A DNA stretch of 64,000 nt from Candidatus Tayloriibacteriota bacterium. GTDB taxonomy: Bacteria; Patescibacteriota; Minisyncoccia; Phycocordibacterales; UBA6065. Shown piece by piece: positions 2,776 through 46,499 of this stretch. The stretch lies in the NCBI GenBank assembly GCA_016215405.1, contig JACRJQ010000007.1:71297-135296 (forward strand), given 5' to 3'. The notes beneath the pieces are model-generated. The model ran no database searches. It saw only the letters and a program-made list of their open reading frames with translations, and was not told where the DNA came from. The number at the start of each line of letters is the position of its first letter. Within the stretch, counting starts at the first letter, position 1. A program made the position numbers and the translations under genes.

Positions 2776-3693
2776 CTACTCTTTGACGCATGTCCTACCG
2801 TCTCTACCGATGTCGAACCTCCTCTCCTTCACTGCGATATCGCCCTGGACGAGCGACACTTCTAACCCTCCTCCGACTCTCACTTCCTCCGTCCAATATT
2901 GATCGAATATGAAATTGCCGAGGGAATAATATATAGGCTTTCCGGCGTAGACCTCGCTCTCTTGGACGATGTGAGGGTGAGAGCCCACGACCAGGTCGGC
3001 GCCAGCGTCTATGAATCGGTGCGCGAGCGCCTTTTGATACTCGTTCGCGGGAAGGTATTCGTCTCCCCAATGCGCGTACACGGCGACGAGGTCGCTCGAC
3101 CTCCTCGCTTTCCAGATAGCGTCTATCGTCTTTTGCGGGTCGTTCTCGCCCAAAAATTGGTTAAACCCCACGAAAGAAAGCCGGTTGCCGCCCTTAACGA
3201 CGGTCGCTGATATGTCTCCTATAGGATCGCCAAAATGCGCGATCCCGCTCTCACGAAGGAGGGCCTTCGTGCTCTCTACGCCCTCTCTGCCGAAATCCCA
3301 TATGTGATTGTTGCCGAGGCTCACGAGTCCGACGCCTGCGCCCGAGAGCGCCTCTATGGCGCCCTTTGAAAAAGTGAAGGTCGTATTGCCTGGCTCGCCG
3401 GGCACGGTCTCTAGCGATATCGAATCGTGAAAGGTGACAGGCCCTTCGAGATTTCCCACTACGAGGTCGAAGCCGGCCAGGTAGTCCTTCGCGCACGAGA
3501 AAAGGTGGTCGTACCCCCGCGACTCTCCTATCTTTCGCAGGGTACGATCGAGCATGATGTCGCCCACGAATAGTATCTTCGTCTCGCCGCCTCTCTCTTC
3601 GCCCGAACGCCCTGACGAGAGGACGGCGAAAGCGATTCCCGTTCCGATCAATATGAGGATAAGGGCCTTTTTTACCTTCGTGTTCATAGCCAT
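2776..3693 (-). CDS. CapA/PgsA-family metallophosphatase (poly-gamma-glutamate capsule synthesis-like)
   Basis: Motifs GDIMLDR, GNNHIWDFG, YAHWGDEY and GADLVVGSHPH characteristic of the CapA family; N-terminal TM anchor. Confidence 0.75.
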   Translation of the reverse strand: MAMNTKVKKALILILIGTGIAFAVLSSGRSGEERGGETKILFVGDIMLDRTLRKIGESRGYDHLFSCAKDYLAGFDLVVGNLEGPVTFHDSISLETVPGEPGNTTFTFSKGAIEALSGAGVGLVSLGNNHIWDFGREGVESTKALLRESGIAHFGDPIGDISATVVKGGNRLSFVGFNQFLGENDPQKTIDAIWKARRSSDLVAVYAHWGDEYLPANEYQKALAHRFIDAGADLVVGSHPHIVQESEVYAGKPIYYSLGNFIFDQYWTEEVRVGGGLEVSLVQGDIAVKERRFDIGRDGRTCVKE

Positions 3694-3727
3694 CGATTTA
3701 TCGAAAAGGCGTCCTCGACGGCAGGAC

Positions 3728-4645
3728 CTAGACCTTCAGATATCTTCGTACCGCGAGATAGCTCGATATAGCGCCGAGAAGGATGCCTACGCCTATGATA
3801 AGGGCTGACACCTGGGCGAAATTGGCGGTGTAGTAGTCGAAAAGGCTGAATCCGCTGAAGAAGGTCTCAGTGATGGACGACACCCAGTACGTCACCGGAT
3901 AGAAGACGACGAGCGTGGCGAGAGCCGACACGACGCCGTACATGACGCCCGAAATCACGAACGGCCCGCGGATGTAGCGGTTAGACGCGCCCACGAGCCT
4001 CATCACCGATATCTCCTCTCGGGCGATGTAGATGGCGAGGCGTATGGTGTTGAGCGTGATGAGGATGGATATCGCGATAAGGACTATCGTTATAGCGAGG
4101 CCTATCTTCCTCGATCCGTCGATCATCCTCGTAAGAGAGTCGATAGCCGCCTTATTCTGATAGTAATTAACCTTGTCTATGAATTGGCCGTTCTCGCCGG
4201 ACTCCGAATCGAGGAATTTCGCGATGCCTTCATACTGCGAGGTCTCTTTCGCCCTTATGTTGAGGATCGCGCCAAGAGGGTTCTCTCCGAGCTCTTCGAG
4301 GGCCTGAAGGGTTATCTCGTCGTTCTCATGCTGAGCCTTGAAATTCTCGAGAGCCTGGTCGCGCGAGACGTATTCGACCTGAGCGACCTCGGGAAGAGCC
4401 TCGACCTTGTTCCTGAGCGCGAGTATCTCCTCCTCGTCGGCCGAAGGCGCGAAGTAGACGTTCACGTCGACCTTGGAGCGTATCTCGTCGAGAGACGAAT
4501 TGAGGAGAGCGCTCGCGAACATGAGAGAGCCCAGAACGAAAAGGGTCAACGTCATGATGAGGACCGAAGAGAGCGACACGAAGCCGTTCCTCCAGAACGA
4601 CACGAAGCCTGATTTTATGATGCGTCGGGTGTTGAGCCAGAACAT
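3728..4645 (-). CDS. ftsX: cell division ABC transporter permease FtsX
   Basis: 305 aa; 4 TM helices with a large periplasmic loop; immediately downstream of ftsE. Confidence 0.8.
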   Translation of the reverse strand: MFWLNTRRIIKSGFVSFWRNGFVSLSSVLIMTLTLFVLGSLMFASALLNSSLDEIRSKVDVNVYFAPSADEEEILALRNKVEALPEVAQVEYVSRDQALENFKAQHENDEITLQALEELGENPLGAILNIRAKETSQYEGIAKFLDSESGENGQFIDKVNYYQNKAAIDSLTRMIDGSRKIGLAITIVLIAISILITLNTIRLAIYIAREEISVMRLVGASNRYIRGPFVISGVMYGVVSALATLVVFYPVTYWVSSITETFFSGFSLFDYYTANFAQVSALIIGVGILLGAISSYLAVRRYLKV

Positions 4646-6675: not shown

Positions 6676-6748
6676 GCCAACTTAGCTCAGTCGGTAGAGC
6701 ACGTCATTGGTAATGACGAGGTCTCCGGTTCGATCCCGGAAGTTGGCT
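6676..6748 (+). tRNA. tRNA-Thr (anticodon GGT)
   Basis: Cloverleaf GCCAACT/AGTTGGC acceptor, D-arm GCTCAGTCGGTAGAGC, anticodon loop TTGGTAA, T-arm TCCGGTTCGATCCCGGA. Confidence 0.85.
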
Positions 6749-6788
6749 CAGGCACGATCGCCCCGACCGAAGGTCGATGGTTCGCCGC

Positions 6789-6861
6789 GCCACCTTAGCT
6801 CAGCTGGTAGAGCAATACTTTCGTAAAGTAGAGGTCCCCGGTTCGATCCCGGGAGGTGGCT
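6789..6861 (+). tRNA. tRNA-Thr (anticodon CGT)
   Basis: Acceptor GCCACCT/AGGTGGC, anticodon loop TTCGTAA, T-arm CCCGGTTCGATCCCGGG. Confidence 0.85.
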
Positions 6862-6950
6862 CAGAAAACTAAAAGCCGCTTTTGCGGACTTTTAGTTTTC
6901 TGAGCCACCTAAGAGCGATCGAATCGCTCTGTCCCGGGATCGAAGAGGTT
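6851..6950. repeat. tRNA 3'-flank mirror element (hairpin incorporating the acceptor 3' strand, plus an antisense copy of acceptor and T-arm)
   Basis: aggtggctcagaaaactaaaag-[ccgcttttgcgg]-cttttagttttctgagccacct is a 22-bp perfect inverted repeat; a downstream gagcgatcgaatcgctc hairpin follows; then cccgggatcgaa is the reverse complement of the tRNA T-loop/stem. Confidence 0.6.
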
Positions 6951-6963
6951 CTCCTATATTTCT

Positions 6964-7115
6964 GAGGGATTCCTATTCCGAAGAAATGGGAAACCTGTAC
7001 TGCGGCTGTAAGCCGAGATTCTCGGGAGGAATCGAAAGGGTTCCCTGTTGTCTTCGAGGACTTCTATCCGAGAAAACTGAAACCTATACTGCCGCCGTAG
7101 GCAAAGACCCTCGGA
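6964..7115 (+). repeat. two imperfect tandem repeats of about 62 nt (period 89)
   Basis: gagggattcctattccgaagaaatgggaaacctgtactgcggctgtaagccgagattctcggg versus gaggacttctatccgagaaaactgaaacctatactgccgccgtaggcaaagaccctcgga. Confidence 0.5.
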
Positions 7116-9262: not shown

Positions 9263-9424
9263 GCGTGTTATCGATAACCTTCCTAAATGGAAGCTACAGA
9301 TAGTACGTAAGCGCCGCAGGAGAGGTGTCAGGGCGGGACTCGGTCACAGGTCGTTTTCTGCTGAAAACGCCCGCCACCCCGCCTCGCGCTTTACGGATAT
9401 GCTCCCAGCATATCCTCACGCTCC

Positions 9425-9487
9425 GGCTTTCGAGTCCCTACTCCGCAAAGCAAAAAGCGTCCGAGAATGGACGCTTTTTGCTTTATG
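9425..9487. repeat. tRNA 3'-flank mirror element downstream of tRNA-Asp
   Basis: 16-bp perfect hairpin aaagcaaaaagcgtcc/ggacgctttttgcttt adjacent to the tRNA 3' end; ttcgagtccc at about 9429-9438 is an antisense copy of the tRNA-Asp T-loop/stem. Confidence 0.5.
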
Positions 9488-9562: not shown

Positions 9563-9640
9563 ATGCTGGGATATTTAAGCATAAACGGCCTTAAAAATCG
9601 AGAGTCTATCGACCCTTCGCTTAAGATCGCTTACCGCTTG

Positions 9641-9714
9641 TGTCGGGGGAGGGATTCGAACCCTCGACCCCAGGCTTATGAGTCCTGTGCTCTAACCAAC
9701 TGAGCTACCCCGAC
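9641..9714 (-). tRNA. tRNA with CAT anticodon (elongator Met or Ile2/lysidine)
   Basis: Acceptor GTCGGGG/CCCCGAC, anticodon loop CTCATAA, T-arm GAGGGTTCGAATCCCTC; an A31-G39 mismatch in the anticodon stem. Confidence 0.75.
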
Positions 9715-11221: not shown

Positions 11222-11386
11222 AGGGAAAGTATAGCAAAAGACGCCTTACTGGACGTTTGTCATACATCTTGCGGAAGGGTTTGAATTATCATGAATCGCT
11301 AAGTCTTTTGCTGCAGAAGCCAGCAAAAGCCCAAGTGTTCGCGATCCCGCCTCGCCCGTCTCGCTTCGCTCGACATGGCTGCGACC

Positions 11387-11477
11387 TTCAAATCCAACCC
11401 GACGAACGTCTCAGGCGTTCGTCTCCCGCAACAAGCATGAAAAAAACCGCTATCAATAGCGGTTTTTTTCATGCTTG

Positions 11478-11484
<7 letters not shown>
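11387..11484. repeat. tRNA 3'-flank mirror element downstream of tRNA-fMet
   Basis: Perfect palindrome gcaacaagcatgaaaaaaaccgctat/atagcggtttttttcatgcttgttgc includes the tRNA 3' end; an antisense acceptor copy cccgcaaca; a gacgaacg...cgttcgtc hairpin insertion; an antisense T-arm copy ttcaaatccaaccc. Confidence 0.55.
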
Positions 11485-11551
<67 letters not shown>

Positions 11552-30833: not shown

Positions 30834-30919
30834 ATATTAAGCGCGCTTCTATGTCGCTAATAGTAGCAGGTATAAGGAGAGGTATCGAGGGCGGGGTTCG
30901 AACGCGAGCCTTCATTTGG

Positions 30920-31005
30920 CGGAGACGGAGAGAATTTCGGTCCTTACAGGACCAGTACCCCGATTGGCGCGAGTACGCGGCTCAATCGGGCTTCGAATCT
31001 CTCAC
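30920..31005. repeat. 86-bp direct repeat, copy 1 (duplicated tRNA-Ser mirror element)
   Basis: Identical to 31076-31161 by eye. Begins with ggagacggagaga, antisense of the tRNA-Ser 3' end; ends with ttcgaatctctcac, antisense of the T-loop/stem; two internal hairpins. Confidence 0.8.
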
Positions 31006-31075
31006 ACCCCTATCGATGATTCGGTCACAGGTTTTCGCTTGCTAGCGAAACCCGCGACCCCGCCTCGCGCCGTCG

Positions 31076-31161
31076 CGGAGACGGAGAGAATTTCGGTCCT
31101 TACAGGACCAGTACCCCGATTGGCGCGAGTACGCGGCTCAATCGGGCTTCGAATCTCTCAC
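31076..31161. repeat. 86-bp direct repeat, copy 2 (tRNA-Ser mirror element)
   Basis: Same 86 bp as copy 1, period 156. Followed by a gcaggcgtaccacgcctgc hairpin and a sense-strand ctcgtctccgcca. Confidence 0.8.
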
Positions 31162-31227
31162 GCAGGCGTACCACGCCTGCTCGTCTCCGCCAAACAAAAA
31201 ACGGCACTTTCGTGCTCGTTTTTGTAT

Positions 31228-41898: not shown

Positions 41899-41972
41899 GC
41901 GCCTATAGCTCAGTTGGTTAGAGCATCGAGCTTATACCTCGAGGGTCCTTGGTTCGAGTCCAAGTAGGCGCA
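41899..41972 (+). tRNA. tRNA-Ile (anticodon TAT)
   Basis: Acceptor GCGCCTA/TAGGCGC, anticodon stem TCGAG/CTCGA with loop CTTATAC, T-arm CTTGGTTCGAGTCCAAG. Confidence 0.8.
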
Positions 41973-41980
41973 CCGACATA

Positions 41981-44644: not shown

Positions 44645-45091
44645 ATGGCCTTGGCCGACAACAAAAAAGCGCGATTCGACTACGAGATAATCGAGACCAT
44701 CGAGGCCGGGATCGAGCTTTTAGGCATGGAAGTTAAGTCCATAAGGACCCACGGAGCGACTTTAGACGGCGCCTACGTAACAATACGAGGCGGAGAGGCG
44801 TATATGATGCAGATGTCCGTGCCTCCCTACCAGCCGACGAACTCGCCGAAGGAGTATGACCCCTTGAGGATCCGCCGGCTCCTCCTTACGAAGAAGGAGA
44901 TACGAAAATTGGCCGATATCGAGGCCGGCAAAGGGTTGACAATAGTGCCAATTAAGGTGTATAATAAAGGGAAGAAGGTCAAGATCGCCATCGGGATCGC
45001 CCGTGGCAAGAAGACCTTCGACAAGAGAGAGTCGATAAAGAAGAGAGAGACGGACAGAGAGTCGAGAAGGACATTGAAATACGAAGAATAG
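44645..45091 (+). CDS. smpB: SsrA-binding protein SmpB
   Basis: 148 aa; NKKARFDYEI...GMEVKSIR N-terminus typical of SmpB. Confidence 0.9.
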   Translation: MALADNKKARFDYEIIETIEAGIELLGMEVKSIRTHGATLDGAYVTIRGGEAYMMQMSVPPYQPTNSPKEYDPLRIRRLLLTKKEIRKLADIEAGKGLTIVPIKVYNKGKKVKIAIGIARGKKTFDKRESIKKRETDRESRRTLKYEE

Positions 45092-45105: not shown

Positions 45106-45495
45106 GGGGATGATCGGCCTAGACATGCGATTCCCTTCCCTTTGCGCGCGATAGAGCTCCGACAACTCTTTAAACTGCCGGAAACCACAAATGCTAAATC
45201 CGTTAAATCGCCGTTTACGGCTAACGATTTTTCATTCGCTTACGCAATAGCCTAAGCGACATCGCACTCCTCGCATTCCTGGCGCGGGAGAGAGCGGTGT
45301 TATAGATCCAGGATAGAGCCCGACCCGCTTCGGTCCCGCTCGAAAGGCTTCGGCCTCATGAAGCTCGGCGCCCGCGCGTTCTGGAACTCTTAGAGCGCGT
45401 CCGCTTAAATCCGCCTTCGGCGGAAAGACTTCCTACATCGCGTAGACACAATCGGAAATTTCGCTTGCACCCGAGTTCGATTCTCGGCATCTCCA
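45106..45495 (+). ncRNA. ssrA: tmRNA (ssrA), one-piece; encoded tag ANDFSFAYAIA
   Basis: Begins GGGGAUGAU 15 nt after smpB. The 5' GGGGAUG pairs with the 3' CAUCUCC including a G3-U70 wobble and A73 discriminator (alanine identity). T-arm CCGAGUUCGAUUCUCGG precedes it. An in-frame GCU AAC GAU UUU UCA UUC GCU UAC GCA AUA GCC UAA (45220-45255) resembles the E. coli ANDENYALAA tag. Confidence 0.75.
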
Positions 45496-45590
45496 CAAAG
45501 CAAGTCGCCCGCAAGGGCGGCTTTTGCTTTGTGGAGATGAGTCGTGCCGGGGGGGGCACGACGTCCGAGAATCGAAGCCCGGTTGAGCAT
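45488..45590. repeat. tRNA-like 3'-flank mirror element downstream of tmRNA
   Basis: catctccacaaagcaag-[tcgcccgcaagggcgg]-cttttgctttgtggagatg long hairpin including the acceptor 3' strand; then gtcgtgcc-gggggg-ggcacgac hairpin; then ccgagaatcgaa, antisense of the tmRNA T-arm. Confidence 0.5.
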
Positions 45591-45808
45591 AATTTATGAG
45601 CAAAGCGAAGTAAATTATCCAACCGCGGGTACTGGTCCTGTAAGGACCGATAAGCGCACTCGCGATCTCGGCTCCACTGCACCATCACCCTTATCCGCGA
45701 TTGGTATCATATATGATACCAATCGTAATCTAACGGTCTGAGGGATCGCGCGTAACCGATGCTCAGACAAATGTATTACACTAAAATGCGAGAACATAAC
45801 ATCCACAT

Positions 45809-46084
45809 ATGACAAAAAGAATATCGATTATCGTCGCGGTCGTGGTCGCATTGCTCATGGTCCCGCTCGTCGCCATGCAGTTTACCGAAGAGGTGCAGTG
45901 GACCGGATCGGACTTCGCCGCCATGGGAGCTCTCCTCTTCATAACAGGCCTTATCCTCGACTTCGCCGTAAGGAAGGCCGGGACGACCCCGCGCAAGATA
46001 GGCTTCGCGGCTGCCATCCTGCTCGGATTCGTCTATATCTGGGCAGAGCTCGCCGTCGGCATCTTCACGAACATCGGAAGCTAG
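45809..46084 (+). CDS. small hypothetical membrane protein
   Basis: 91 aa, 3 TM. Confidence 0.45.
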   Translation: MTKRISIIVAVVVALLMVPLVAMQFTEEVQWTGSDFAAMGALLFITGLILDFAVRKAGTTPRKIGFAAAILLGFVYIWAELAVGIFTNIGS

Positions 46085-46103
46085 AGCGCGTCGAGGGCGG
46101 CGC

Positions 46104-46499
46104 ATGCTAAGATGGCAGAACATGACAAAGAGCCGTCCGAGAAAGGTCCTGGGAAGCTTCCTCGTCTTTTTGGGCTTTTGGCTCTCTCCTCTCTCGCCTT
46201 GGAACGACGTCTTCACGAACGTCCCTATCGCCTATGCGTTCGGCTTCGTCTTCTCGTTCTTCTACCCGCCCCTCTTCTTCCCGCTCGTCGTCATAGGCTA
46301 TTGGCTCACTAACGCCCTCGGGTTCGTCCTCATGCATTACGGATACGCGCACCTGCATTCGCGGCACGGCGCGTATTCTTTCCGAAAGCACTGGAAGACA
46401 TACGCTCTGGCGACCACGCTCTACACCCTCCTTATCGTCGTCCTTATCTGGTACGGCATACTGCCGTCTGCCCAAGAAGTCGTGGGATTCTTCAGATAG
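46104..46499 (+). CDS. hypothetical membrane protein
   Basis: 131 aa, 4 TM, aromatic-rich. Confidence 0.5.
   Translation: MLRWQNMTKSRPRKVLGSFLVFLGFWLSPLSPWNDVFTNVPIAYAFGFVFSFFYPPLFFPLVVIGYWLTNALGFVLMHYGYAHLHSRHGAYSFRKHWKTYALATTLYTLLIVVLIWYGILPSAQEVVGFFR

Follow-up and report, generated by a model that had tools for sequence, protein, structure and literature searches.

REP/REPIN elements and miniature inverted-repeat transposable elements (MITEs) are high-copy, protein-less, hairpin-forming intergenic repeats that are mobilised in trans, for example by RAYT. In CTX-phage attP(+) and integron attC, folded single strands serve as recombination sites for the recombinases XerCD or IntI, and CTX phage needs no element-encoded enzyme. 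Inverted repeats are also the sites of quasi-palindrome templated mutation, which proceeds by intrastrand template switching, and the 3′ external transcribed spacer (ETS) of an E. coli tRNA gives rise to the small RNA (sRNA) 3′ETS-leuZ. Finally, genomic islands and prophages reportedly reside in the 3′ ends of tRNA and transfer-messenger RNA (tmRNA) genes, with tyrosine-integrase attachment (att) sites that are said to have a sublocation in the T-loop (an account attributed to Williams, 2002, in NAR). Here we describe a unit of ~180 nucleotides that lies directly behind the tmRNA gene in a 64,000-nucleotide stretch of DNA (hereafter the window) from a Candidatus Tayloriibacteriota bacterium (contig JACRJQ010000007.1). 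The unit presents the 3′ end of the neighbouring gene in mirror image, split by a hairpin and followed by a structured core and a direct copy of the gene end. By itself this instance is a decayed copy, and its value is in pointing to a large, apparently undescribed family.

The unit spans positions 45497-45677 of the window on the + strand, which is also the strand of the gene and of every feature of the unit described below. A preliminary description of this DNA had noted a mirror element at 45488-45590 and interpreted it as a further copy of the flanks seen at tRNA genes. Sequence reading and an inverted-repeat scan located each of the sequence features that it listed, the mirror element behind the tmRNA is real, and the flank-copy interpretation is confirmed: the same order of terminator, anti-acceptor, hairpin and anti-T-arm occurs at tRNA-Thr(cgt), tRNA-Met (11477-11551) and tRNA-Ser, and in degenerate form at tRNA-Asp. 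The end assigned to the feature was too early, however, because the unit extends to ~45677 and only its first half had been covered. The structured core, the direct repeat and membership in a Patescibacteria-wide family were missing from that account.

The first half begins within the gene itself. A long palindrome (45488-45539) is formed by the acceptor 3′ strand plus trailer (45488-45503) and the mirror (45524-45539), an inverted repeat of 16 nucleotides that is 100% complementary. What had been described as a 16-bp hairpin after the acceptor strand thus has the acceptor 3′ strand and trailer as its 5′ arm. By sequence reading, a terminator palindrome (45497-45529) occupies the interior, and the stem TCGCCC-GCAA-GGGCGG (45502-45523), with A and T runs at its flanks, is a predicted bidirectional intrinsic terminator that looks terminator-like on both strands. 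The first part of the mirror, TGT-GGAGATG (45530-45539), is the complement of the acceptor 3′ strand, the discriminator and the first trailer bases. Its GGAGATG (45533-45539), which also occurs in the orthologous loci L186, L003, L128, L172 and L180, had been taken to recreate the 5′ acceptor strand, but it is the Watson–Crick complement of the 3′ strand and has an A at position 3, where the true 5′ strand GGGGATG carries a G. We rejected the idea that the mirror copies the 5′ strand of the gene on this A3 versus G3 difference and on the antisense nature of the T-loop part.

A single A separates this first part of the mirror from hairpin H (gtcgtgcc-gggggg-ggcacgac, 45541-45562), which has an 8-bp stem and a G6 loop, and a GU separates H from the second part. 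This hairpin splits the mirror precisely at the 65/66 boundary, with the acceptor-strand complement on one side and the T-stem complement on the other. In orthologues the stem of H has a different sequence and is fully compensated, and the Thr, Ser and Met units of the window carry a different hairpin at the same position. The second part of the mirror (anti-T, CCGAGAATCGAA, 45565-45576) is the complement of the T-loop and the T-stem 3′ strand, or gene positions 54-65; ccgagaatcgaa at 45565-45576 is the exact reverse complement of 45476-45487. Across the family, the anti-T is the most constant of the gene-specific parts.

The second half is dominated by a conserved core, which we call module A (45577-45650) and which is defined by a covariance-model match (45565-45653, 87 bits, E 1e-22), by covariation within the family and by a predicted fold. 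In this fold, helix P1 would pair 45578-45585 with 45620-45628, and helix P2 would pair 45589-45597 with 45610-45618 around an internal GA/GAA loop. A junction UACU (45630-45633) leads to hairpin P3, GGUCC-UGUAA-GGACC (45634-45648), which is followed by a terminal GA. The core precedes a decayed direct repeat of the tmRNA 3′ end, in which 45666-45677 reads TCTCGGC---TCCAC compared with TCTCGGCATCTCCAC at 45482-45496, three bases having been lost. When 45530-45685 is folded as a single strand, exactly these helices are predicted (-63.9 kcal/mol, z = -4.4). No sigma-70 promoter was found for the unit.

Two smaller features accompany this half. An optional mini-hairpin of 14 nucleotides, AAGCGCACUCGCGA (45652-45665), lies within the T-loop part of the direct repeat; its loop is CACU, compared with UACU in most other copies. 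The version AAGCGUACUCGCGG with loop UACU is located between T-loop positions 59 and 60 of the repeat in L007, L021, L030, L035, L050, L055, L076, L098, L172 and L186, and its stems vary in a compensatory manner (AUG/CAU, GGG/CCC). Between the decayed repeat and the next open reading frame (ORF; 45809-46084, +) is a perfect 28-bp palindrome, CGATTGGTATCATA joined without spacer to TATGATACCAATCG (45698-45725). This sequence is unique in the window and may be an operator.

The gene in front of the unit is a complete, one-piece tmRNA gene (ssrA, 45106-45496, +), as called by ARAGORN with the tag AKSVKSPFTANDFSFAYAIA. The Rfam model for one-piece tmRNA (RF00023) matches 45106-45498 over model positions 1-374 of 374 with 86.5 bits (gathering score 47), and smpB (44645-45091) ends 14 nucleotides before the gene, with ftsH further upstream. 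The T-arm CCGAG-TTCGATT-CTCGG (45471-45487) is followed by the acceptor 3′ strand CATCTCC (45488-45494) and the discriminator A (45495). Because the 5′ GGGGATG pairs with CATCTCC, a G3·U70 pair included, the tRNA-like domain is formed from the gene's own ends.

The order of 3′ acceptor strand, hairpin and 5′-like acceptor strand resembles that of circularly permuted genes, in which an acceptor piece and an intervening hairpin would be followed by the start of a coding piece. When the permuted model RF04321 was run on 45440-46200, it aligned only to 45471-45540 (T-arm, acceptor, hairpin and mirror) at model positions 36-94 of 213, and this weak partial match of 22.3 bits covers 59 of the 213 positions and falls below the gathering score of 47. 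No coding piece is present downstream of the tmRNA. The preliminary description had dismissed a two-piece tmRNA, rightly, and had proposed a comparison of covariance models as a check, in which the one-piece model outscores the permuted one. Moreover, the one-piece gene has its own 5′ end and tag ORF upstream, the mirror has A3 whereas the G3·U70 pair demands G3, and ordinary tRNA genes have the same downstream architecture. As a positive control, a metagenome scan yielded genuine permuted tmRNA genes with an identical 3′ 24-mer (L148, L157 and L169), and these proceed to GGGGATGATCGGC ~17 nucleotides after the acceptor piece, not to mirror, hairpin and core. We therefore assign a permuted gene at this locus almost no likelihood.

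An intron in the T-loop was also considered, of group I, group II or bulge-helix-bulge (BHB) type, and was rejected: the gene is uninterrupted, there is no match to an intron family, and the bases flanking the putative junctions cannot form a 4-bp BHB helix. Group I introns in Patescibacteria tRNA genes are located in the anticodon loop, at position 35/36 (10.1101/2025.07.03.662931).

A covariance model of the core, called R1 (87 positions, 27 pairs), was built from 20 aligned copies. In the window it finds the tmRNA copy at 87 bits, two copies behind tRNA-Ser at 63.9 bits each, one behind tRNA-Thr at 30.6 bits and a second, weak Thr copy. In the R1 alignment, which is fitted to the model and hence leans toward the structure, 92.8% of the cells form standard pairs compared with 66.8% in shuffles, double-sided changes occur in 26 of the 27 pairs, and slid partner columns pair at 35-57%. 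An independent MAFFT/RNAalifold run recovered P1 as CG 35, AU 24 and GC 10. Among 29 copies that were not picked through the P3 19-mer used for genome searches (see below), the P3 stem varies freely with compensation, while GUACU, UGUAA and the closing G-C remain constant. The strand also matters: of 87 copies, 64 have a gene-sense strand whose fold is more stable than that of its complement (p = 3e-7), and G·U combinations outnumber A·C combinations 138 to 43 in helices P0-P2. The core is a conserved fold on the gene's sense strand, which fits RNA or single-stranded sense-strand DNA. The invariant junction GUACU and loop UGUAA (e.g., 45629-45650 in the window) could form a 3-bp H-type pseudoknot from UAC and GUA, for which invariance leaves covariation uninformative.

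The family extends far beyond this genome. A P3 19-mer was used to search a species-representative genome collection, and loci L001-L117 were chosen by this one 19-mer, a choice that biases the statistics of P3 and partly those of the whole family. At least 117 stretches carry the 19-mer, and among the matches listed all but one are from metagenome-assembled genomes (MAGs) of Patescibacteria. By the depositors' own labels, the hosts are Paceibacterota/Parcubacteria, Kaiser-, Nomura- and Taylorbacteria, plus MAGs labelled Saccharibacteria. The only match outside Patescibacteria among those listed is at position 2848 of L108, a Niabella-labelled contig; it has neither a nearby tRNA gene nor core context and is probably a chance match or a binning error. 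When R1 was applied to 787 kb of Patescibacteria loci, 134 copies were detected at E<=1e-3.

The position of these copies is highly regular. Of 123 core instances, 93 follow a tRNA or tmRNA gene in the same orientation at a distance of 18-591 nucleotides (mostly 95-160), with ~19 specificities represented, and the rest are mostly at locus edges or next to genes missed by ARAGORN. Among 177 tRNA genes of the loci studied, 84 have a 12-mer antisense to their own T-loop and T-stem, with at most one mismatch, within the 300 nucleotides downstream, and none has it upstream. This 12-mer lies behind 63 of the 85 tRNA genes that are not internal to operons and are followed by the 19-mer, compared with 20 of the 77 others in the same loci. 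This antisense mirror pattern is far beyond chance. The units are protein-less, measure ~130-190 nucleotides and frequently occur in tandem, and truncated units also exist. Of 80 units subjected to a strict scan, 23 have a terminator-like hairpin that separates the core from the gene.

Nearly all tRNA genes of L001-L117 encode a C after the discriminator, most commonly as N73-C-A-A, with a full CCA in ~10%. In L035, L049 and L073, units lie behind an RNA-like sequence not called by ARAGORN (..cattcgaactt(c/t)gtccaa(t/g)acacaccgc), whose end does not match the arms of the unit.

These data bear on another account of the mirror, namely that there is no element and that a terminator hairpin grew outward by replication template switching, copying the gene end onto its downstream arm, with unrelated intergenic sequence beyond. 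This would be consistent with a mirror that runs through the genomic trailer to make one long perfect palindrome with the terminator, with exact Watson–Crick complementarity lacking wobble bias, and with the short partial mirror that is all that follows the terminator of tRNA-Ile(UAU). However, every gene has a hairpin inserted at the same place in its mirror, one of a few conserved cores and a direct repeat invariably come after the mirror, and mirrors without any terminator exist among the copies. The core belongs to a high-scoring family of 134 copies, by which this account is largely refuted. In addition, among 64 metagenomic loci, mostly from other phyla, that have a tmRNA 3′ 24-mer identical to that of the window, only three carry the mirror, and the mirror is therefore not a property of the tmRNA sequence. 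We consider outward hairpin growth to be highly improbable.

The two copies of the gene end behave differently. The direct repeat, whose first base is C56 of the T-loop, normally runs to the discriminator plus C, and identity normally stops at the gene end. It is perfect over 18-19 nucleotides in ~17 copies and decayed in many others. If paired with the mirror, it would make a minihelix resembling an acceptor/T-arm, with the hairpin in place of nucleotides 8-48. We rejected such a pseudo-tRNA minihelix as a generally selected structure, since the anti-acceptor and the acceptor part of the repeat are both intact in just 5 of 62 copies, with losses that are independent, and since the mirror tracks the gene rather than the repeat. 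Where gene and repeat differ in the T-stem, the mirror agrees with the gene 22 times and with the repeat 3 times. The mismatches between mirror and gene (G·T 11, A·C 8, other 30) reveal no wobble preference, unlike those in the core.

The mirror extends through the genomic trailer and not into a CCA, which led us to reject a copy from mature tRNA, as in a retro-element or primer-binding site. A CCA follows the direct repeat in 8 of 38 copies, compared with ~10% of ordinary genes. On this evidence, the mirror is an exact DNA-level complement of the neighbouring gene, and neither a copy of mature tRNA nor an RNA helix tuned by selection. The direct repeat is a displaced, older 3′ end, a fossil that either decays or preserves another allele.

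Relatives of the window bacterium offer a view of the same site over evolutionary time. Their smpB-ssrA regions were obtained via SmpB homologues and scanned with R1. The SmpB of the window is 100% identical to that of a Candidatus Taylorbacteria MAG, and a strain-level search with the exact SmpB sequence yielded this organism alone. L186 (SmpB 86% identical, same tag peptide) and L192 (77%) have a unit at the same place, scoring 68.6 and 69.6 bits. Compared with the window, P1 and the junction are the same or closely related, while the stems of the terminator, H and P2 differ with compensation; in L186 the P3 stem has changed to GACCA/TGGTC. The acceptor strand of L192 is CACTTCC, and because its mirror GGAAGTG matches it, the mirror has changed along with the gene. 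A metagenomic copy, L172, also carries a unit at the tmRNA gene. In contrast, L187/L188 (79%) and L189/L190 (78%) have a plain hairpin or the next gene instead, and L191 (76%) has no unit and a classical island at the same tmRNA gene. In this island (2780-4444), the last 44 nucleotides of the tmRNA are duplicated in direct tandem, and a gene for a large serine recombinase (Resolvase, Recombinase, Zn_ribbon_recom) comes next.

The repeats in two of these loci are especially informative. In L186 and L172 the direct repeat TCCGCCCATCTCCACA corresponds to a tmRNA end with the T-stem strand CCGCC, and L187 still uses GGCGG/CCGCC. However, the live genes of L186 and L172 have CCGAG/CTCGG, such that both T-stem strands are unlike the repeat allele. 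This repeat is a well-preserved fossil of a different allele, which would be hard to reach through evolution in place. It is easily explained if a unit arrived with the tmRNA 3′ region of a donor, because this would bring the allele along.

The type of core at the tmRNA site also varies by lineage: module A in the window; module B, a small ORF and module A in L003; and other variants in L128, L172 and L180. The L003 ORF (within 6700-7020, minus strand) comprises ~90 codons, encodes a predicted membrane protein and, lying between the module B and module A units, may be cargo. The cores of L003, at the tmRNA gene, and of L099, at a tRNA-Pro gene in another MAG, are 92% identical with identical P2 loops and homologous hairpins, while their arms match their respective genes (GTGGAGATG/CCGAGAATCGAA in L003 and GTCGGGGCG/CCGGGATTCGAA in L099). 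A nearest-neighbour analysis of cores yields a mix of same-tRNA pairs across MAGs and different-tRNA pairs.

As the leading explanation, we tentatively favour a non-autonomous element that derives from insertion and has the 3′ ends of tRNA and tmRNA genes as its target. Tandem arrays are seen, many different genes carry a unit, and closely related bacteria differ in whether a unit is there. The sequences further show that a single hairpin-plus-core lineage can stand behind several genes, its arms fitting each of them, and that the mirror is kept complementary to the live gene without tolerance for wobble. A complete unit comprises, in order, the 3′ part of the gene that is in use, usually a bidirectional terminator, the inverted copy split by a hairpin, the three-helix core, and a direct copy from C56 to the gene end. 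Entry would occur by recombination, for which the conserved tRNA or tmRNA gene would provide homology at one end and the T-loop-like CGANUC that invariably follows the core would do so at the other, either through transformation with DNA from relatives or through a putative trans-acting enzyme for which the folded core, as RNA or single-stranded DNA, would be the recognition signal. The host gene would remain intact because the unit supplies a replacement 3′ end and a terminator. With an inverted repeat in place, the neighbouring gene could act as the template from which the mirror is rewritten by intrastrand copying (quasi-palindrome correction), and because of this rewriting the mirror would track the gene through substitutions and through a change of target.

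Several observations weigh against this explanation. No recombinase, transposase or reverse transcriptase is linked to the element at the 117 loci or among 40 window proteins. Even where species share just 77-86% SmpB identity, the copies behind the same gene retain every hairpin by compensation, as well as the junction sequences. This looks like long-term purifying selection in place, which is unexpected for a dead insertion, although independent insertions of one circulating lineage, or homogenisation of hairpins, could mimic such selection. Covariation is likewise ambiguous, since in DNA hairpins it can also be produced by templated correction without selection. Insertion leaves unexplained why the hairpin is located exactly at the boundary of T-stem and acceptor. 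Lastly, because a terminator precedes the core in only the 23 of 80 units counted above, transcription probably runs from the tRNA through most cores, as would suit an RNA function.

Such a function constitutes the main alternative, a possible one, although we lean away from it. A predicted 3′-trailer RNA, consisting of hairpin, anti-T arm and core, would be co-transcribed or reached by read-through and released by tRNA 3′ processing. Its gene-specific arm would be complementary to the 3′ half of its own tRNA, and the common core would bind a putative shared protein or ligand. It might serve as a per-tRNA antisense regulator, a surveillance RNA, an aid to processing or termination, or a protective structure, and pairing of repeat and arm in cis would keep the arm closed. 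The sense-strand specificity of the fold and its RNA-like wobble bias argue for this possibility, as do the single-stranded GUACU and loop UGUAA, which stay invariant while stems covary, the compensatory preservation of hairpins between same-gene copies of different species, and the absence of a terminator-like hairpin before the core in most units. The predicted fold for the tmRNA unit, with its acceptor-like helix, hairpin, P0 and three-way core, is also as stable as noted above, the hairpin stands where tRNA nucleotides 8-48 would be, and arm plus repeat mimic an acceptor/T-arm half.

Other data count against such an RNA. The supposed closing helices have decayed independently and are rarely both intact, and mismatches between arm and gene lack a wobble preference. 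In the window, a good terminator stands before the mirror at the tmRNA, Thr, Ser, Met and Asp genes. The units are patchy among close relatives, of the remaining tRNAs in these loci just 26% have a mirror, and tandem and truncated units exist.

The same evidence can be read in terms of islands or phages that integrated into tRNA and tmRNA 3′ ends and left scars, i.e., attL/attR remnants accreted in the manner of CIMEs, with the core as the arm region of attP. Direct repeats from T-loop to gene end, tandem arrays, the L003 ORF positioned between two units as cargo would be, and the genuine island with a large serine recombinase at the same tmRNA gene in L191 are all compatible with this scenario. 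However, all-against-all clustering of 1669 ORFs within ~4 kb of the 117 loci recovered no recurrent integrase and only housekeeping families as recurrent neighbours (EF-G, MiaA-like, YraN-like etc.). A Pfam scan of 40 window proteins, which are housekeeping proteins such as LigA, RecG, type IV pilus, SecY, RNase J-like, EndoV and others, revealed no integrase, transposase, TnpB or reverse transcriptase. Likewise, IMG/VR viral contigs yielded no credible copy when searched with the exact 19-mer and with a degenerate pattern of the core. The core acts as a single-strand fold, judging from covariation and wobble bias, and not as a set of duplex protein-binding sites, and att sites do not have an inverted, gene-matched copy split by a hairpin. 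In addition, a crossover in the T-loop would not yield the situation in L186, where both T-stem strands differ from the repeat allele. Scars of integrase-bearing islands are therefore quite unlikely as the origin of these units.

A further reading, which we regard as unlikely, combines templated copying with function: the hairpin-plus-core could be the constant part of a self-retargeting system that gains an exact antisense of the local gene's 3′ end. With similarly low likelihood, the products would be RNAs or single-stranded DNAs with a gene-specific 20-nucleotide arm and a shared scaffold, which could act as per-tRNA guides for a putative Patescibacteria protein. Their roles, just as conjectural, might be in homing, gene maintenance or tRNA control, with a specificity that is rewritten from the target and not inherited.

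Additional units in the window illustrate the range of forms that the family takes. The unit order behind tRNA-Thr(cgt), tRNA-Met (11477-11551) and tRNA-Ser(gct) is terminator, anti-acceptor, 8-bp hairpin, anti-T, core and direct repeat. Behind tRNA-Thr(cgt) (6863-7110, +), a palindromic terminator is followed by the mirror GAGCCACCT (6902-6910), a hairpin (6912-6930), the anti-T (6933-6944) and a first core (R1 6933-7021, 30.6 bits) whose P3 is a compensatory variant, GCGGC/GCCGA. A second, degenerate core (R1 7025-7110, 16 bits) abuts the decayed repeat of the first unit and has the anti-T-loop AATCGAA without a matching anti-T-stem.

Two tandem units are present behind tRNA-Ser(gct) (30917-31227, - strand), with R1 matches at 31090-31159 and 30934-31003. 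The first consists of mirror (31192-31182), hairpin (31180-31162), anti-T (31159-31148), core and direct repeat (31089-31074). A module-B-like stretch follows, and after it come the anti-T (31003-30992), an identical core and the direct repeat (30934-30917). Both end in TTCTCTCCGTCTCCGC(CA). The stretch that follows the anti-T-arm of the tmRNA unit recurs exactly behind tRNA-Ser; GGTACTGGTCCTGTAAGGACCG was counted three times in the window and was absent from shuffles.

The remaining units were delineated by sequence reading. Behind tRNA-Asp (9333-9486, -) are a palindromic terminator, a decayed anti-acceptor and the anti-T GGGACTCGAA (9438-9429), followed by a different core, module B, that ends in CCTGTGACCGA and by the direct-repeat remnant GTCCCGCC. 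Behind tRNA-Met (11477-11551), the unit (11267-11476, -) includes a 28-nucleotide palindromic terminator, the mirror GTTGCGGG (11432-11425), a hairpin (11423-11401), the anti-T GTTGGATTTGAA (11398-11387), a module-B-like core and a decayed direct repeat (11284-11267). Two tRNAs without units, Thr(ggt) and Met 9640-9714, each have the next tRNA within 80 nucleotides. The tRNA-Ile gene at 41899-41974, with the rare anticodon TAT (UAU), has a terminator and the short partial mirror GGTGCG and no core.

At least two more core families occupy the slot of module A, as read by eye from the sequence: B (..GCGAGGCGGGGTSGCGGG..CCTGTGACCGA) and C (AGACTGYTCCG..CGGGTCGGGCGAATGAG..GTGACCGA). They are found in the window at 9333-9486 (-), 11267-11476 (-) and 31004-31073 (-), and in L003, L013, L014, L034, L043, L128 and L172. 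Like module A, both end in ..ACCGA, after which the remaining T-loop follows.

Searches for known families were carried out in parallel. Rfam 15 gave only chance-level matches on 45480-45810 and 45440-46200, with no family for the unit, and a search of open-access literature and bioRxiv, literal core sequence included, returned no description of the element. Several candidate classes were rejected. An H/ACA guide RNA is alike only in its guide-hairpin-guide topology (RF02484, 18.4 bits versus 100), and H/ACA proteins are not known from bacteria. For an IS200/IS605 omega-RNA or an IS110 bridge RNA, no tnpB, iscB or IS110 gene is nearby and no Rfam match was obtained, omega-RNA motifs included; unlike the loops of a bridge RNA, the two arms of the element each complement one and the same strand, and they also complement each other. 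Inspection by eye gave no support for reading the core as a hammerhead-like, K-turn or BHB structure. An origin as a MITE or other insertion sequence-derived element was also rejected, given that the inverted arms are gene-specific, that the duplication is the 18-19 nucleotides of the gene end and that there are no constant terminal repeats.

If our interpretation is correct, a structured element associated with the most conserved cellular genes is present in Patescibacteria at dozens of copies per genome. The element would offer a natural inverted repeat that is held in register with a live gene, and thereby access to mechanisms of templated correction or retargeting. Since older alleles survive in the direct repeats, the element could also be used to trace horizontal exchange at tRNA and tmRNA loci. 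For annotation it would be a warning, since the unit mimics permuted tmRNA or tRNA-like domains and its pseudo-3′ ends may lead gene callers and island finders astray. The conserved GUACU/UGUAA core would be a concrete handle toward a partner protein.

Among described systems, islands in tRNA genes that accrete in the manner of CIMEs share with the element a target from T-loop to 3′ end, a gene kept by a replacement copy, a displaced 3′ end left as a direct repeat, and tandem arrays. They differ in that the element, at ~130-190 nucleotides, has neither integrase nor cargo and possesses an inverted, gene-matched copy split by a hairpin. Its core, moreover, is a single-strand fold absent from the viral contigs searched, and the L186 alleles imply exchange upstream of the T-arm. 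The permuted tmRNA genes of RF04321 have the same local order of T-arm, 3′ acceptor strand, hairpin and strand complementary to the acceptor 3′ strand. Here, however, the model reaches 22.3 bits versus 47 over a quarter of its length, a complete one-piece gene lies upstream, no coding piece follows, and position 3 is an A.

The sRNAs derived from 3′ETS regions are comparable in that tRNA processing could release a stable RNA from the trailer, which for the element is putative. Unlike the element, these sRNAs are single loci that have neither a fold conserved across tRNAs nor complementarity to their own tRNA. In CTX attP(+) and attC, as in the element, two inverted target-like copies fold on one strand to imitate a chromosomal site, with strand specificity and bulged elements. 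In those sites, though, the half-sites are constant, whereas the duplex of the element imitates the right half only and varies with the gene.

The element resembles REP/REPIN elements and MITEs in being small, structured, palindromic and high in copy number, in lying just downstream of genes and in having no gene of its own. Such repeats also often double as terminators and persist over long evolutionary times. In contrast to them, the element targets one gene class with arms that are copied from the neighbouring gene and differ per locus, and no fixed terminal inverted repeats, short target duplication or REP-like GTAG motif were seen in it, nor was a RAYT-like gene seen in the 64-kb window or in the loci. 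Quasi-palindrome correction would account for one aspect, namely an arm that stays an exact Watson–Crick copy with several substitutions transferred at once, as observed for mirror and gene. It is a mutational process, however, and leaves the hairpin, the core and the direct repeat unexplained. An unusual property of this apparently undescribed family is that its arms are copied in mirror image from the neighbouring gene.

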